Origin: Escherichia phage vB_EcoM_G2133
Reading direction: 5' to 3' (one strand)
Sequence record: MK327928.1
DNA: 64,000 bases
Part shown: one piece after another, positions 56,646 through 63,845 of the stretch
How positions within the stretch are numbered: the stretch's first letter is position 1
Layout: each line of letters begins with the position of its first letter
The notes under the pieces: model-generated
The model's database searches: none
What the model was told of the DNA's origin: nothing
Seen by the model: the letters and a program-made list of their open reading frames with translations, nothing else
Translations under genes and position numbers: made by a program

Positions 56646-57610
56646 TGTATTCTTTAGAGGAATTTAATAATCAAGCAATAAACGCAGATTTCCAACGTAA
56701 TAATATGTTTAGCTGCGTTTTTGCGACAACTCCATCAACTAAAAGCTCTTCGTTGATAAGTTCAATTAGCAACTTTTCTTATAATAACTTGGGCCTAAAT
56801 TCAGATTGGTTAGGATTGACTCAAGGTGATATTAATCAGGGAATTACCACGCTAATTACTGCTGGCACACAAAAACTGATAAGAAAATCAGGGGTTAGTA
56901 AATATCTTATTGGTGCCATGAGTCAACGTACAGTTCAAAGTTTATTAGGCTCATTTACAGTTGGTACATATTTAATTGACTTCTTTAACATGGCATATAA
57001 CTCATCTGGATTGATGATATACTCTGTAAAAATGCCAGAGAATAGATTATCCTATGAAACTGACTGGAACTACAATTCTCCTAATATTCGCATAACCGGG
57101 AGAGAATTAGACCCTTTGGTTATTTCATTTAGAATGGATTCAGAAGCTTGTAACTATCGTGCAATGCAAGACTGGGTTAACTCCGTTCAAGACCCAGTAA
57201 CTGGATTACGCGCTTTGCCACAGGATGTCGAGGCAGATATTCAGGTTAATCTTCATTCTCGTAATGGATTGCCTCATACTGCGGTGATGTTCACTGGATG
57301 CATTCCAATATCAGTGAGCGCTCCTGAGTTATCATATGATGGAGATAACCAAATAACTACATTTGACGTTACTTTTGCGTATAGAGTGATGCAGGCTGGA
57401 GCAGTTGATAGGCAAGCTGCGCTTGAATGGCTTGAATCTGCTGCTATAAATGGTATTCAAAGCGTTCTCGGAAATAGTGGAGGTGTTACTGGACTATCTA
57501 ATTCGCTTTCACGACTCAGTAGATTAGGGGGAACTGCAGGAAGCATTTCAAACATTAATACTATGACAGGAATTGTCAATTCGCAAAGTAAAATATTAGG
57601 AGCAATATAA
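56645..57610 (+). CDS. 54: baseplate tail-tube initiator
   Basis: 321 aa; synteny. Confidence 0.9.
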   Translation: MYSLEEFNNQAINADFQRNNMFSCVFATTPSTKSSSLISSISNFSYNNLGLNSDWLGLTQGDINQGITTLITAGTQKLIRKSGVSKYLIGAMSQRTVQSLLGSFTVGTYLIDFFNMAYNSSGLMIYSVKMPENRLSYETDWNYNSPNIRITGRELDPLVISFRMDSEACNYRAMQDWVNSVQDPVTGLRALPQDVEADIQVNLHSRNGLPHTAVMFTGCIPISVSAPELSYDGDNQITTFDVTFAYRVMQAGAVDRQAALEWLESAAINGIQSVLGNSGGVTGLSNSLSRLSRLGGTAGSISNINTMTGIVNSQSKILGAI

Positions 57611-57614
57611 CAAT

Positions 57615-57643
57615 GGGGACCTTTCGGTCCCCATATTTTTATT
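57615..57643. terminator. bidirectional terminator between gene 54 and the alt region
   Basis: Hairpin ggggacctttcggtcccc flanked by T-runs, between convergent genes. Confidence 0.6.
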
Positions 57644-57929
57644 TACGGAATGAAATAAAAGCAGCAACTGAAGCAACTAAACTGTCTTCAATATAAACCT
57701 CAATTTTTACCGGAGCTTCTGACTCAAATTTACCTGTTACTACACCTTGGAAAATACTTTCAGTCTGTTCTGGCTTTGAAAAATTTTCAGAAGGAAAAAT
57801 TCCGAACTTTTTATCTGTTCCAAAAATTTTGATAAATTCATCGTAAACTGCTTCATTAAAAGCATTATCAGCAGGAATAACGCCTTCAACTACAAGTTCT
57901 TGACCTAAAAAGCGCAAAGAAGATTTCAT
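57639..57929 (-). CDS. hypothetical protein downstream of alt
   Basis: 96-aa ORF; no recognisable motif. Confidence 0.5.
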   Translation of the reverse strand: MKSSLRFLGQELVVEGVIPADNAFNEAVYDEFIKIFGTDKKFGIFPSENFSKPEQTESIFQGVVTGKFESEAPVKIEVYIEDSLVASVAAFISFRK

Positions 57930-57989
57930 TTTGTGTTCCTCATGTTATGCCAGTAAGACTACTATAACACAACACGAGGGACTTGTAAA

Positions 57990-60047
57990 CTACATTTTGA
58001 ACTTTTTAGACATTCCGTTGATGTTAACCAAAGAAGCCAAGATTTGAGAAACTTCGTTTTCCTCTTCTTTTGATTCTTCTACAAGGAATTGATTAAATCC
58101 AGCCATTGGACGAACTTCACCAGTTTCCATTAGATGGTCGCCATCATATACCGATTCCTCTAATTGTTCAGAAGGAGGAACGATTGTACCTTCTATTAGA
58201 TACTTGTTATAAGCAGTTTCTTTCATAAAGTACGTACTTACTTTATTAATCTTCAGTAAAATTCCGCGCGGTAGAATAACTTCAGCTTCTGATGGAAATC
58301 CTGATAAATGACCTGGAACGATAACTTTGATTCGCTCAGCTCCTTTAATTACCATACCCACGCTAGTTTCAGCATCTTCATTAGCATATGTAGAATGACT
58401 ACCCATATGCATCAAATCTTCTGCATCAACGGAACCTTCTCCTTCACCAGAAAATACTGCGCCGGAATCATCTAGAGCCATATAGTTTTTACCATGCTCA
58501 CCGAAGATATTTGGTTTAAGCGATGTGGATACGAAGTTCTTGAAATAGAACATTTTATTTTCAATGTTATGACGCAAAGTTTTAAAGGTAACTTCTTGCC
58601 CACGATAAAGAGTAGTTCCTGGAGGAAGAACAGAACCTTTAGCAAATGCAGAATCCAACGTCTCGATGTGTTTAATAGCTCGTTCCATATATTCTTCACG
58701 GGTAGAATCAGGTTTACCTAAAAGGAACGAGTTCATTTCAACATATGAATCTGCACAATAATCTTCAATTACATCAGATTCAGCTTGAGTTAATCCTTTT
58801 GGAGTTACTTCGGTGCTTGCGTATTCATATGCCTGAGCGGCAGATTCATTAATCAATTTATAAATGCCATTCATTACAAATTGAATAATAGCTGTCTTTT
58901 CATCTGGCGTAGCTTTAGAACCTTTAACCAAATCATTGATAATTTTCTTAATAACATCAAAGCTATTAGAAATATTAATGTCAGCAAGATCGCTTAAAAT
59001 TTTATCAGTTTTATAATCAAAGAATTCTTTATTCTTTAAATATTCTTGAGAACCTTGATATGTTATATCGCTCTGCAACTTGATAGATGGATCACGTAAA
59101 CGTGCATGGGCTAATGCAATATGATTTCGGAAGTTTTCTAGTTCGTAATCGCTAGATTTAAAACGAGAAGCACTTCTCATACCACCAATAGCTCCTTTGC
59201 TGAAGTTTGAACCAATCTGAATAACGCCAGAGTTCATTGGTCCTTCTGCTTTATACACCGGAACTTTAAATTCAAACTCTTGATATTTCTTAGCAGCGAA
59301 GCTATCACCCTGAAGTGAAGCATCGACAGTAGAATATTGAGCTTGTGCTGCTAATCGACGACTAATTTTAGTTTTCTGAATAACAGCTTGATCAGTGCGC
59401 TTATCATTTTCTAAAGCAATAGAAGCAGCAACAGCGACAGCTTTAGGAACAGCATTACCTGTTTTAACGTCTACATAAACATCACCAACCTTTGATTCAA
59501 CTTTTGTGAATAACTCAGTTGAAATAGGAGGTACACCTGGAATGTCTTCTAAATTGGCATTTTTACGGTAAACCATAATATATGCATATTTCTTATCAAA
59601 GTCCCAGATTTCCTTTAAAAGAACATATCGACCTGCTCCTTTAGTACGTACTAAACGGTCAGCAATAACTTGCATTTGACGAGCAGCGCCATTTGTTTTA
59701 CTCTTTAGTACGCGAAATAAGCATGCATCAATTTTATACTGTTTCATTGTTTGAAGAGCAGTATCAAAAACAGCATTAATGACGCCAATTGGATTTCCAC
59801 CCAAGTTTTTAAGCTTAACTAACGATAATTTCTCGTTGACACCTATCATTACGATATGCATCATTTTATCGCCTGGCTTAACGTTTTTATTCGTATCACC
59901 GCCAGAGGTGTATGTACAAAATCTAAATCCAGGAAGCACGCTTTCTTCACCGGCTTGAATAGCAAAAATTTGTGGTATTTTATGCTTAGGATTTAAGTTA
60001 ACAACCGGCGCCGAAGCGCCGTCAAATAATTCTGTAATAAGTTCCAT
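57990..60047 (-). CDS. alt: ADP-ribosyltransferase Alt (packaged, injected)
   Basis: N-terminus MELITELFD...; C-terminal ADP-ribosyltransferase triad R (TLYRGQ), STS (FVSTSL), ExE (SEAEVILPRG); position next to gene 30 as in T4. Confidence 0.9.
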   Translation of the reverse strand: MELITELFDGASAPVVNLNPKHKIPQIFAIQAGEESVLPGFRFCTYTSGGDTNKNVKPGDKMMHIVMIGVNEKLSLVKLKNLGGNPIGVINAVFDTALQTMKQYKIDACLFRVLKSKTNGAARQMQVIADRLVRTKGAGRYVLLKEIWDFDKKYAYIMVYRKNANLEDIPGVPPISTELFTKVESKVGDVYVDVKTGNAVPKAVAVAASIALENDKRTDQAVIQKTKISRRLAAQAQYSTVDASLQGDSFAAKKYQEFEFKVPVYKAEGPMNSGVIQIGSNFSKGAIGGMRSASRFKSSDYELENFRNHIALAHARLRDPSIKLQSDITYQGSQEYLKNKEFFDYKTDKILSDLADINISNSFDVIKKIINDLVKGSKATPDEKTAIIQFVMNGIYKLINESAAQAYEYASTEVTPKGLTQAESDVIEDYCADSYVEMNSFLLGKPDSTREEYMERAIKHIETLDSAFAKGSVLPPGTTLYRGQEVTFKTLRHNIENKMFYFKNFVSTSLKPNIFGEHGKNYMALDDSGAVFSGEGEGSVDAEDLMHMGSHSTYANEDAETSVGMVIKGAERIKVIVPGHLSGFPSEAEVILPRGILLKINKVSTYFMKETAYNKYLIEGTIVPPSEQLEESVYDGDHLMETGEVRPMAGFNQFLVEESKEEENEVSQILASLVNINGMSKKFKM

Positions 60048-60050
60048 GAT

Positions 60051-62147
60051 TTATCCTTGAACGAACTTGTAAGGCATGTTTGTAATATCTATGCAAGACG
60101 CAATAATTCCAAGAGATGATTCTACTTTCTGTTTAACGTTTGATGAAACAAATGATGCAAAGTCAACTCTGTCTTCTATTTCAATATCACCTGTCATTGC
60201 AACCAATTCACCAGTTTCCATTAAATGGTCTCCATCATAGATTACCGATTCGGTGAGCTCTTCCGTGGTCATAACTTCAGCTTGAATGAGTTTTGTATTA
60301 TTAGATGTTGTTCCGTCATTATTAGAAGCATCAGTTATTTTATTAACTTTGACCATCAATCCACGCGGTAGAATAACTTCAGCTTCTGTTGCTATTCCGA
60401 GACTTCCTGGATATACAACATTAACTTTATGAGCTCCATCAATTGCCCATCCTATTTGAACTTTAACGTATTCAGGATTTTCTTTATACGCTCTTATTTC
60501 GTTTGGATTAATAGTTATTCCTTCTTCATTTTTATCAACTGTTAATTCATTGCGAGCTTCTGGTTCTAAAAGACCAATACCAGCATGTGTAATTCCAAAA
60601 CGTCCAAAAATGATAGGAGTTAAAGAAGTAGATACAAAATTTCTGAAGTAGAACACTTTATTTTTAACTAACGCTTCATATATAGGAGCAGTCATACTTT
60701 GAGCACGATAAACTGTAATGCCTTCTGGTATACGGTCACCATTTTCAAAAGCTGAATCTAAGTTATTTATAGCAGATTCAATTTCTTTTTCACTCATTAC
60801 ATCATATCGTTCTGGATTGTAACGACCTAAAAGAAGATTATTGATGTCAGTATATCCTGAACCGCAATATTCTCTAATGCCACGCTTTTGTGATGGAGTA
60901 TATTTAGAACCATCGCGGGCAATAGTAATATCAATCATTGGACCAGCACCAATTCCAGAAAAACTGTAAATCATTCGTTTGAGGAATTTAGTTTTTGCTG
61001 CGTTCCAGGAATTTTTAGTTATTTCTTCCCAGACTTCATCTGGTTGTCCTTTACGATTTTTATTATGATTAGCAAGCCATTTATCTTTATAATCTTCAAA
61101 GAATTGATTTACAGCTGCTGCGTATTTCTCTAAACATTTTATTGAAGTAGTTGGTTCATTTTTAATTGCATTAAAAATTACTTCTTTAATTTTTTCTGAA
61201 ACTTCACCGACTTGACTCATTGGAAAGAATTTATAATCATAGTGAAGTTCATCTGCCGTTCCTTCAGCAATAATTTTTGCTGCCTTTGTTTTAGAAGCTA
61301 ATGAATTAATTCCAATTTTCATTTCTTCTGCTTCGGGAATTAAAGGAGCGGTAGCAGGTTTATTGAAATTAGCTGCGGTAGATTCATACTTCTGGAATAA
61401 TTCACTTTCAAATCTAGAAGATTCCAACGACTGACTTTGCGCAATTGCTCTACGTGAAATTTTAACTTTAACGATTACCGCTTGGTCAGAACGTTTATCA
61501 TTTTCTTGCGCAATAGATGCTGCAATTGCCTCATTTTTAGTTACTTGGGCTCCAGTATCTTTATTGATATAAACATCACCGACTTTCGATTCAACTTTAG
61601 TAAAGAGCTCGGTACTAATTTCCGGAACTCCTGGAATGTCTTCTAATGATACATTTTTGCGATGTATAAGAATATATGCATACTTTTTATCATAATCCCA
61701 GAGTTCCTTAAGAAGGACGTATCTGCCACCTGAACGACTACGGATAAGTCTATCAGCAATAAGTTGAATTTGACGAGCTTGACCAGCAGTTTTAGACTTA
61801 AGAATACGGAGCATACATGCATCAATTTTATACTGACGCATCGTCTGCATCGCAACAGTAAAAACTGAATTGATGTAATTAATTGGGCTTGGACCGAGAC
61901 CCTTTAATTTAGCAATTGAACCTTTAGCAGTTAATGTAAAAGGAACAATATGCATCATTTTATCGCCCATTTTTAAATCGCGATTAGTATCACCTCCAGA
62001 TGTATAGGTACATAAACGAAAACCTGGTTGTTCAATTGCGTCATCAACATGAACTGAAAAAATTTGCGGTATTTTCTTCTTTGGATTTAAGTTTGTAATC
62101 GGAAGAGTAGTATCTTCGTCAAATAATTCTGTAATGAGTTCCATCAT
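60051..62147 (-). CDS. second Alt-like ADP-ribosyltransferase (tandem paralogue)
   Basis: 698 aa; N-terminal ~230 aa about 65-70% identical to the adjacent alt product; intact R (TVYRAQ), STS (FVSTSL), ExE (TEAEVILPRG); central region divergent. Confidence 0.85.
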   Translation of the reverse strand: MMELITELFDEDTTLPITNLNPKKKIPQIFSVHVDDAIEQPGFRLCTYTSGGDTNRDLKMGDKMMHIVPFTLTAKGSIAKLKGLGPSPINYINSVFTVAMQTMRQYKIDACMLRILKSKTAGQARQIQLIADRLIRSRSGGRYVLLKELWDYDKKYAYILIHRKNVSLEDIPGVPEISTELFTKVESKVGDVYINKDTGAQVTKNEAIAASIAQENDKRSDQAVIVKVKISRRAIAQSQSLESSRFESELFQKYESTAANFNKPATAPLIPEAEEMKIGINSLASKTKAAKIIAEGTADELHYDYKFFPMSQVGEVSEKIKEVIFNAIKNEPTTSIKCLEKYAAAVNQFFEDYKDKWLANHNKNRKGQPDEVWEEITKNSWNAAKTKFLKRMIYSFSGIGAGPMIDITIARDGSKYTPSQKRGIREYCGSGYTDINNLLLGRYNPERYDVMSEKEIESAINNLDSAFENGDRIPEGITVYRAQSMTAPIYEALVKNKVFYFRNFVSTSLTPIIFGRFGITHAGIGLLEPEARNELTVDKNEEGITINPNEIRAYKENPEYVKVQIGWAIDGAHKVNVVYPGSLGIATEAEVILPRGLMVKVNKITDASNNDGTTSNNTKLIQAEVMTTEELTESVIYDGDHLMETGELVAMTGDIEIEDRVDFASFVSSNVKQKVESSLGIIASCIDITNMPYKFVQG

Positions 62148-62167
62148 ATCCTCTCTAGTGTTTATTC

Positions 62168-62175
62168 TATTTATA
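62168..62175 (-). promoter_or_regulatory. late promoter (TATAAATA) upstream of the Alt paralogue
   Basis: Minus-strand TATAAATA followed by GAGAGGA RBS and the ATG at 62147. Confidence 0.5.
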
Positions 62176-62180
62176 AAATT

Positions 62181-62198
62181 AAAGGCCCGAAGGCCTTT
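62181..62198 (-). terminator. terminator hairpin overlapping the stop of the 62197..62385 ORF
   Basis: Minus strand AAAGGCCTTCGGGCCTTT (UUCG tetraloop) followed by a T-rich run. Confidence 0.5.
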
Positions 62199-62385
62199 AA
62201 TAATCTATTGGTAAGAGAGTACGATATATTTCAAACTTTGGACCTTTTTCATAGGTATCAAATGTTTCTGTGAATTTATTATAAGCATATGCATCTATAA
62301 ATTCAATCATAATTTGTGATACAGAAGTAGAAACATCTCCACCTTCTTTTTGAGCCACGACAATTGTTTCTAAGTAAGCTTTCAT
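62197..62385 (-). CDS. hypothetical small protein
   Basis: 62-aa ORF between gene 30 and the Alt paralogue. Confidence 0.5.
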   Translation of the reverse strand: MKAYLETIVVAQKEGGDVSTSVSQIMIEFIDAYAYNKFTETFDTYEKGPKFEIYRTLLPIDY

Positions 62386-63845
62386 AGACCAGTTACCTCA
62401 TGAAAATCACCAAATACATCCTCGAATGTATTAGCTTTAGTTTTATCTTCACGCAAACGAATCGCAATCGGAAGAAATAATTTAACGTAATCAGTGCGGC
62501 CATCAGATTTTAACCAACCGTTGCATTCGCACTCTAGAATTTTTCCAATATAATAATTTTGGTTTTCCATAATGCGAGTACGGTCAAGTTCATGCGATTT
62601 TACACCGGCTTTATCTTTTAAGCCTGAACCAGCATTTACTTTAATTTTTCCACACTCTGATTCAAGAATGAAACCACCTGCTTTAGTAGGGTCTTTACGG
62701 TGAGGATAAATTCCTACAATTTTTAAATCAACATCAATTACTTCTTTAAATTTATAAAGATTTTTTGAACGAGCATTTTCCCATAATCCATCGATATTTT
62801 TGAGAATAATACCTTCAAGACCTTGGTCAATATACTTTTTGTAAATTACCTTAGCTTCATCTAGGTTATTTACTACTTGGTTTTCAATTAAAATTACTTT
62901 ATCATAGCCTGATGTCATTTGTTCTAGTTTAGAAAAACGTACATCATATTTTAAACGAAATGCTGGAAGACCATATATTTCTACTAATGGAACATAATCC
63001 CAGACCTGAAACTTCATGCATTGTGCTTCTTTTTCAGAAATGGTTCCCTTTAAAGATTTATTGGCGATGCCATTAGATGCAGTACGTGATTCAGCTACTT
63101 CGGCGAATTCTTTAGCTTTACTAATTTCAGGATAAGCATCAAAAAGAAAATCTAGGCCTTCTGGTTCCTTTTCAACTTGCTCATGGTATACCAATTCGCC
63201 ATCAATTAACACACCTTCTGGATGAATCTGGCGGGCTTCAGCAGTCATTTTGATTAACTCTTCCTTAAGAAGATCTAATCCTAGATATTCATTGCCAGCT
63301 CGTGATAAAAGACGAACATCATCTAATTCATCACCTCTGACTTCGGCAAAGCACCGAGCTCCATCAGCTTTTAACTGGGCAAAGGCTGGAAATTTGATAT
63401 TCTTATTAATGCCTTTTTCATCATAAGAACTTGCAAGCATTTGAGGTTGTTCAGGAATTAAACCTGGCCAAACTTTGTTCGCAATAGATACTGAAGCGCC
63501 ACATTCAAGGTCTCGCATCATCACTCGACGCAAAACTTCAACATCATCTTTTTTACCATCGGTGATGTATCCAATTAATTCCTCAATCGCCGCATTTCCA
63601 GTCAATTTCCGAGTAGCTAACGTGAATTCAATGAAGTCAAGCATATCGGTAAGAGTCAACATTCCAAAACTCTGGGTAGCAATACCAGGTTTAGGCCATT
63701 TCTTGATATAATACTGTAACCCACGAGAATAAGTCAGACGATATACTCGTTTAAGCAATTCATTATCTTTATTCTTTTCAAGAATTGCTTGCTTCTGCTT
63801 AGTTGAACCAATAGATGCTATTTCGTTCAGAATTTTAAGAATCAT
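62382..63845 (-). CDS. 30: ATP-dependent DNA ligase
   Basis: MILKILNEIASIGSTKQKQAILEKNKDNELLKRVYRLTYSRG... with adenylation motif KADG (AQLKADGARCF); matches T4 DNA ligase along its length. Confidence 0.97.
   Translation of the reverse strand: MILKILNEIASIGSTKQKQAILEKNKDNELLKRVYRLTYSRGLQYYIKKWPKPGIATQSFGMLTLTDMLDFIEFTLATRKLTGNAAIEELIGYITDGKKDDVEVLRRVMMRDLECGASVSIANKVWPGLIPEQPQMLASSYDEKGINKNIKFPAFAQLKADGARCFAEVRGDELDDVRLLSRAGNEYLGLDLLKEELIKMTAEARQIHPEGVLIDGELVYHEQVEKEPEGLDFLFDAYPEISKAKEFAEVAESRTASNGIANKSLKGTISEKEAQCMKFQVWDYVPLVEIYGLPAFRLKYDVRFSKLEQMTSGYDKVILIENQVVNNLDEAKVIYKKYIDQGLEGIILKNIDGLWENARSKNLYKFKEVIDVDLKIVGIYPHRKDPTKAGGFILESECGKIKVNAGSGLKDKAGVKSHELDRTRIMENQNYYIGKILECECNGWLKSDGRTDYVKLFLPIAIRLREDKTKANTFEDVFGDFHEVTGL

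Follow-up and report, generated by a model that had tools for sequence, protein, structure and literature searches.

A conserved second Alt-type transferase gene, alt2, at the Tequatrovirus alt locus and its product as a candidate injected effector

Introduction

T4 Alt (gpAlt, NP_049811) is a head-packaged, injected NAD+:arginine mono-ADP-ribosyltransferase, and ADP-ribosylation of the RNA polymerase alpha subunit at Arg265 is known for T4 Alt only. In a 64,000-nucleotide stretch of Escherichia phage vB_EcoM_G2133 (MK327928.1; hereafter, the window), the list of open reading frames (ORFs) places two adjacent minus-strand ORFs of 698 and 685 amino acids exactly where a first-pass annotation, made from the sequence alone, had located a tandem pair of Alt-like transferases. 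The pair raises the question of whether the second gene is a novelty and what a second transferase of this type would do. Because the upstream gene adjoins alt.1 and gene 30 and its product is 71% identical to T4 Alt, it is taken as the alt orthologue and the downstream gene as the second paralogue, alt2. Genome comparison indicates that the two form an ordinary, already annotated locus that is the majority state in Tequatrovirus.

Results

By its sequence, the source phage is a Tequatrovirus. The interval 57600-62400 is 97-98% identical at the nucleotide level to many complete Tequatrovirus genomes (PhiZZ23, QOTSP, RB18, Kha5h, slur02, and BASEL phages), and at least 80% of it is covered in one piece by 343 records. 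The gene order, described by T4 names, is 29, 48, 54, alt.-3, the two transferases, alt.1, and the DNA ligase gene 30; both transferase genes thus lie between gene 30/alt.1 and alt.-3/gene 54, the position of the T4 Alt family. In tblastn searches, full-length Alt2 was found at 95% identity or higher in 396 phage records (155 at 99% or higher, 241 at 95-99%), including T2, T6, RB32, and RB18, with almost no matches between 60% and 95% identity, and the 90% protein cluster of Alt2 holds 772 member sequences. In PhiZZ23 and many other genomes, both genes carry the RefSeq label "Alt-like RNA polymerase ADP-ribosyltransferase", and GenBank notes for the BASEL phages name genes of the same length and position "ADP-ribosyltransferase Alt" and "ADP-ribosyltransferase Alt2". 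The Alt2 of these phages (Bas37, Bas39-44) and the unnamed 685-amino-acid gene of T2, T6, RB32, RB3, and RB18 share length, position, and 97-99.7% protein identity; they are the same gene, and the alt2 described here differs from them in nothing of substance and is one more member. Paralogous duplications of alt in several T4-like phages were already noted some time ago (Nolan et al., 2006; PMC1524935). A literature search returned no paper text pairing "Alt2" with ADP-ribosyltransferase and phage, and the name occurs only in the GenBank notes and in the supplementary tables of the HIDEN-SEQ preprint (10.1101/2025.11.20.689424).

These records dispose of the novelty that the first-pass annotation had implied for the second copy. 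That annotation had proposed comparing the alt-30 interval among T4 relatives, and the comparison yields two genes in T2, T6, and most relatives and a remnant in T4. It had also held its suggestion open to the second gene being a standard component of T4-like genomes with a known identical function; the first half of this applies, in that the gene is standard and conserved in most close T4 relatives.

Whether T4 itself carries a comparable paralogue had been left uncertain; it holds just a frameshifted, deleted remnant. In T4, alt is followed by two small ORFs, alt.-1 and alt.-2 (NP_049810 and NP_049809), which a note in the T4 record traces to an ancient duplication of the start of alt. Pairwise alignment shows instead that they are a truncated remnant of the full-length paralogue alt2: the segment matches alt2 at 163/168 and 169/179 bases (94-97%), followed by a gap and then by 58/58 bases running into the alt.-3 promoter, so that alt2 codons 1 to ~117 and the last few alt2 codons are represented. 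Two lesions separate it from the intact gene of the window. The A5 run near 59888 is one A shorter in T4, causing a -1 frameshift, and a 1,699-bp segment is deleted between the copies of a 9-bp direct repeat, CTAAAGAGT (59700-59708) and CTAAAAAGT (58001-58009). The alt.-3 promoter is kept exactly by this deletion. Two small protein families, equated with alt.-1 and alt.-2 by size and position, match Alt2 better than Alt: phrog_23015 (61 amino acids) aligns with Alt2 residues 1-56 at E = 2e-40 (Alt, 1e-21), and phrog_15247 (67 amino acids) with Alt2 residues 62-117 at E = 3e-38 (Alt, 2e-19). A 74-nucleotide probe spanning the deletion junction is complete in 90 records, including T4 and its laboratory variants, RB55, RB59, and ACG-C40. 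Given 90 records with the junction as against 396 with full-length Alt2, the two-gene state is the majority and T4 the derived exception, and the two-gene state is read as ancestral.

The two proteins of the window are clearly homologous but unevenly diverged. Along their whole length they are 41% identical by BLASTP (E = 2e-161), and both show full-length homology to the T4 Alt family, with 71% (Alt) and 41% (Alt2) identity to T4 Alt and end-to-end matches to phrog_802 (E = 1e-273 and 3e-256, respectively). In a MAFFT alignment, identity is 66.5% (161/242) over the first ~240 columns, falls to 12-28% across the center (columns 251-450), recovers to 39-46% in the catalytic core, drops to 16% between the STS and ExE motifs, and reaches ~44% in the C-terminal part. 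Immediately before ExE, the residues are GFPSEAE in Alt2, GIATEAE in Alt, and APSNEME in T4 Alt. The best-conserved part, the N-terminal ~240 residues, corresponds to PF26846 (Tevenvirinae_ADPRT), for which close Alt2 homologues have precomputed matches together with PF03496 (ADPrib_exo_Tox). PF03496 itself scores 129.9 bits in Alt and 71.8 bits in Alt2 against a gathering score of 23.4 bits.

Both proteins bear the marks of R-S-E ADP-ribosyltransferases, namely the profile score, the order and spacing of Arg, Ser-Thr-Ser, and Glu-x-Glu, and the ADP-ribosyltransferase (ART) fold. The motif reads R481 / S506-T507-S508 / E588-x-E590 in Alt and R482 / S507-T508-S509 / E587-x-E589 in Alt2, and a family alignment of 20 sequences shows no variation at R482, S507, S509, E587, and E589. 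In R-S-E transferases, E-x-E goes with arginine as the acceptor. The first-pass annotation had read this architecture well: its intact R/STS/ExE triads, its strongly divergent centers, and its estimate of 65-70% identity over the N-terminal ~230 residues all hold, and only the common opening MELITELFD needs amendment, since this is true of Alt2 whereas the Alt ORF, taken from its first ATG, opens MMELITELFD. The alt gene opens with tandem start codons (ATGATGG at 62142-62147, minus strand), an arrangement that T4 also has. The annotated start of T4 Alt is the second ATG, whose equivalent here (62144) gives a 697-amino-acid protein, and the six-residue propeptide reported for T4 Alt (ITE-6) is likewise counted from it.

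T4 Alt is among the closest known systems. It shares with Alt2 a three-part architecture, the catalytic motif, and both cleavage motifs of the prohead protease gp21, at ~10-17% identity in the helical center. With the Alt of the window it has in common the position by alt.1 and gene 30 and the late promoter with its hairpin. The two also agree in their terminal modules, at 96-100% identity over ~245 residues at the N-terminus and ~75 at the C-terminus, but they carry different central alleles, with only 27-63% identity across most of the intervening ~350 residues (~codons 245-600). Bacterial toxins of the R-S-E clade (Vis, C3, VIP2, iota, CPILE-a, and Certhrax) show 13-26% sequence identity; they lack the Tevenvirinae-specific N-terminal domain (PF26846) and helical middle of the phage proteins, and they are secreted, whereas the phage proteins are delivered from the phage head. 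A sequence search of the PDB with Alt2 gave no match at E <= 0.01, and NCBIfam holds no family matching Alt or Alt2.

Selection on alt2 was assessed in 11 genomes (the window, PhiZZ23, six BASEL phages, T2, T6, and WL-3). The gene is 2,058 nucleotides long and uninterrupted in all of them, and in 55 pairwise genome comparisons the median ratio of nonsynonymous to synonymous substitution rates (dN/dS) is 0.038 (range 0.015-0.078, with dS up to 0.22), compared with a median of 0.065 for alt. These values indicate that alt2 is under strong purifying selection, as expected of a maintained gene and not of a decaying duplicate. Alt2 is essentially one allele, the exceptions being rare variants from metagenomes (74% and 51% identity). 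The center of Alt, by tblastn, falls into sharply separate types, with 307 records at 95% identity or higher, smaller groups at ~81% (MX01) and ~72% (dhabil), and the T4 type at ~47%; it looks like a recombining cassette between conserved ends. Since DalCa combines a T4-type Alt allele with a full alt2, and SG1, judged from hit tables only, apparently combines the window-type allele with the T4-type alt2 deletion, the central Alt cassette and the state of alt2 seem to assort independently.

A further arrangement joins the two paralogues in one gene. In two database proteins, the N-terminus is of the Alt type (93-97% identical to Alt) and the body that of Alt2 (99-100% identical); each is encoded by the only gene that its contig has between alt.1 and alt.-3. 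The cultured phages ECML-134, SCS4, and Yersinia phage PST have the same lone chimera (686 amino acids), seen in SCS4 as a search match alone and in the other two in inspected records. The crossover lies at a different place, between ~residues 100 and 230, in each of the four chimeras examined, indicating that the paralogues have recombined unequally more than once, by way of their conserved N-terminal region. An assembly artefact in the Sequence Read Archive contigs is unlikely, because alt and alt2 of the window have no exact repeat in common longer than 25 nucleotides and the same state is seen in the genomes of three cultured phages, two of which (ECML-134 and PST) were inspected and differ in their crossovers.

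Transcription of the pair can be read from the signals around it (Table 1). An exact T4-type late promoter, TATAAATA, precedes alt and likely drives alt, alt2, and possibly alt.-3; exact copies are enriched in the window (23 found, 9.9 expected), whereas one-mismatch copies occur at chance level (213 and 206). Just upstream, a GC-rich hairpin probably ends the early transcripts arriving from upstream; a simple terminator scan did not flag it, and the annotation of phage DalCa has a rho-independent terminator at the corresponding site. Between alt and alt2, the scan found no minus-strand terminator-like hairpin, and DalCa has annotated terminators just before alt and after alt.-3 and none between the two genes. 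The first-pass annotation had given the second copy its own late promoter. That idea was rejected, as no site with at most one mismatch to TATAAATA was seen in the ~430 nucleotides upstream of alt2, and the only exact copies near the locus lie upstream of alt and well inside it. Because of the 3-nucleotide gap, the lack of a terminator, and the lack of a nearby late-promoter consensus, alt and alt2 are probably co-transcribed from the alt late promoter. A bidirectional hairpin downstream of alt.-3 is the likely end of an alt-alt2-alt.-3 transcription unit.

Each T4 head holds ~40 copies of Alt, which leave it together with the DNA (PMC9026906). By mass spectrometry, gp21 was shown to cut T4 Alt after ITE-6, which takes off six residues, and after LTE-619, which takes off 63 (PMC5694885). 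Alt2 opens MELITE and, near its C-terminus, has L-E-E (629-631) followed by SVYDGDHLMETGE (SVYDGDHL onward), aligned with LTE / SVIYDGDHLMETGE of Alt; gp21 motifs are thus present at both termini of both proteins, and neither E6 nor E631 varies in the family alignment. The structure model of Alt2 is disordered around residues 629-674, that is, near the C-terminal gp21 site. With both cleavage motifs of T4 Alt kept, packaging of Alt2 in the head, and with it injection, is likely, and its features fit a protein that would enter the prohead core and be trimmed like Alt.

Table 1. Coordinates of genes, codons, and signals at the alt-alt2 locus (window positions, except for the chimeric genes, which are numbered within their own loci)
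Feature	Position	Strand	Remarks
alt (orthologue of T4 alt)	60051..62147	-	698 amino acids from first ATG; ORF list
alt catalytic codons	R481 60705-60707; STS506-508 60624-60632; E588-x-E590 60378-60386	-	
alt gp21 motifs	LTE631-633 60249-60257 (698-amino-acid numbering)	-	ITE near N-terminus
alt2 (second Alt paralogue)	57990..60047	-	685 amino acids, 2,058 nucleotides; ORF list
alt2 catalytic codons	R482 58602-58604; STS507-509 58521-58529; E587-x-E589 58281-58289	-	
alt2 predicted gp21 sites	ITE4-6 60030-60038; LEE629-631 58155-58163	-	
Segment of alt2 deleted in T4	58010..59708	-	1,699 bp; pairwise alignment and boundary sequences
T4-type late promoter TATAAATA	62168..62175	-	20 nucleotides upstream of first alt ATG; exact match; same context in T4
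GC-rich hairpin AAAGGCC-TTCG-GGCCTTT with T-rich tail	62181..62198	-	Overlaps alt.1 stop codon; read from sequence, identical in T4
alt-alt2 junction	60048..60058	-	alt stop TAA 60051-60053; 3-nucleotide spacer 60048-60050; Shine-Dalgarno AAGGA 60054-60058 inside alt end
Exact TATAAATA inside alt	60764..60771	-	717 nucleotides upstream of alt2 ATG; sole candidate internal late promoter
alt.-3 promoter, sigma-70/early type, TTTACA-17-TATAGT	57961-57989	-	Abuts alt2 stop codon TAG; upstream TG; promoter scan and sequence
Bidirectional hairpin terminator	57613..57634		Between alt.-3 and gene 54; 9-bp stem, 6 GC pairs; terminator annotated at same place in DalCa
alt.-3, downstream neighbor of alt2	57639..57929	-	96 amino acids, DUF5498; PF17602, E = 1e-64
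alt.1	62197-62385	-	62 amino acids; PF24647 "Phage blade protein", E = 5e-29
Chimeric genes	L014 2501-4561 (ECML-134); L015 2501-4561 (Yersinia phage PST); L012 4001-6061; L013 4001-6055		

The equivalent of alt.1 is mislabelled "siderophore-interacting protein" in the T6 record. For alt.-3, escape mutations of T4 against the CmdTAC mRNA ADP-ribosyltransferase defense proved to be C-terminal extensions of Alt.-3 (PMC11618068), and the homologue bas37_0031 was depleted in one Bas37 host comparison (log2FC -2.70, q = 0.02; 10.1101/2025.11.20.689424).

Discussion

The features of alt2 suggest the following course of events. The gene would be transcribed late, together with alt, from the TATAAATA promoter upstream of alt, and its own Shine-Dalgarno sequence would serve its translation. 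By its conserved N-terminal domain (PF26846), Alt2 would then reach the prohead core, where gp21 would trim it after ITE-6 and after LEE-631, and the mature protein (~625 residues) would be injected with the DNA. Inside the host, it would use NAD+ to mono-ADP-ribosylate arginine, in keeping with its E-x-E type, on host proteins differing from the set modified by Alt. Different substrate sets are plausible because the two paralogues differ greatly in the helical middle and in the long STS-ExE insert, down to the residues just before ExE. The first-pass annotation had suggested a second injected transferase acting on another target, and this is a reasonable reading, given that Alt2 keeps the N-terminal domain and the gp21 motifs but diverges strongly in its substrate-facing regions. 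We consider it rather probable, short of confident, that the whole is an ordinary ancestral alt-alt2 locus encoding a late-expressed, packaged, gp21-trimmed, and injected Alt2 with targets unlike those of Alt. The bolder proposal, that Alt2 serves as a second head-packaged, injected effector whose distinct host targets possibly include a defense or stress-response protein, is put forward tentatively and stands somewhat below an even chance.

Transposon insertion data are published for a phage with the same two genes. Bas37 carries the same alt (2,097 nucleotides) and alt2 (2,058 nucleotides), and the HIDEN-SEQ study showed that T4 Alt helps the phage evade a Mokosh type I system and that the Bas37 Alt allele cannot replace it (10.1101/2025.11.20.689424). 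Insertions were recovered at 116/164 TA sites of alt2 (bas37_0032), classed as "Intermediate", and at 164/179 TA sites of alt (bas37_0033), classed as "Non-essential" (Extended Data Table 7 of the preprint), with mean read counts of ~44 and ~204, respectively; this unequal tolerance of insertions is counted in favor of different targets for the two enzymes. In the two host comparisons considered, alt2 showed no significant change, and the main text of the preprint makes no mention of Alt2.

Alt2 could also be packaged and active yet redundant with Alt, acting on the same targets, such as Arg265 of RNA polymerase alpha, as an extra dose or a backup. Both proteins have the same arginine-type R/STS/ExE motif and common N- and C-terminal modules, T4 has lost alt2 while ECML-134 and PST have lost the alt body and all are viable phages, and T4 Alt is said to have many host proteins as its substrates (Depping 2005, as cited in PMC9503650). 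However, the paralogues are only 12-35% identical across the helical center and the ART domain, purifying selection is strong on each, as would be unusual if they were purely redundant, they tolerate insertions differently in Bas37, and Alt alleles are known not to be interchangeable against Mokosh type I; we regard redundancy as unlikely. An Alt2 that is active but stays out of the head, acting late in infection within the cell that makes it, as ModA and ModB do once expressed, seems more doubtful still. Such a role would suit the late transcription unit and the lack of direct evidence of Alt2 in the virion, but it sits poorly with an N-terminal domain that is common with head-packaged Alt and is the most conserved part, with two retained gp21 motifs whose glutamates are invariant, and with ECML-134 and PST, in which an Alt N-terminus on an Alt2 body is the sole Alt-type gene. 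Finally, loss of the gene is possible, as the T4 lineage demonstrates, but a duplicate in decay or without function is hardly credible, being contradicted by a 685-amino-acid ORF intact in 11/11 genomes, by the low dN/dS across its whole range, by the 396 records and the 772-member cluster, and by the invariant catalytic residues.

Several points weigh against our preferred reading of Alt2 as a late-expressed, packaged, and injected transferase with targets of its own. Literature searches found no experiment on Alt2, be it proteomics of virions, enzymology, or the phenotype of a targeted knockout, and its packaging, cleavage, and activity are read from motifs. The exact TATAAATA inside alt could act as a separate promoter. 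The "Intermediate" call for alt2 in Bas37 could reflect toxic truncated products and not loss of function, and the existence of T4 and ~90 related records without Alt2 implies that the protein is dispensable on laboratory hosts. The ancestral status of the pair, for its part, comes solely from the derivation of the T4 remnant from full-length alt2.

As a genome feature, the locus is ordinary and represents no new kind of system; its interest lies in Alt2 as a conserved candidate for an injected effector, nearly monomorphic and strongly constrained where Alt has sharply different central alleles. Single-enzyme phages exist for both catalytic bodies, with Alt alone in T4 and the Alt2 body alone in ECML-134 and PST, and they offer ready-made material for asking what each transferase targets. 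The textbook phage T4 is the atypical one, and its "hypothetical proteins" alt.-1 and alt.-2 are the wreck of alt2. If Alt2 is indeed a second injected effector, a standard part of the T-even take-over toolkit would have gone unstudied because the model phage T4 lost it, and the presence or absence of Alt2 would contribute to the differences in host range and defense sensitivity between T4 and T2, T6, and wild Tequatroviruses.

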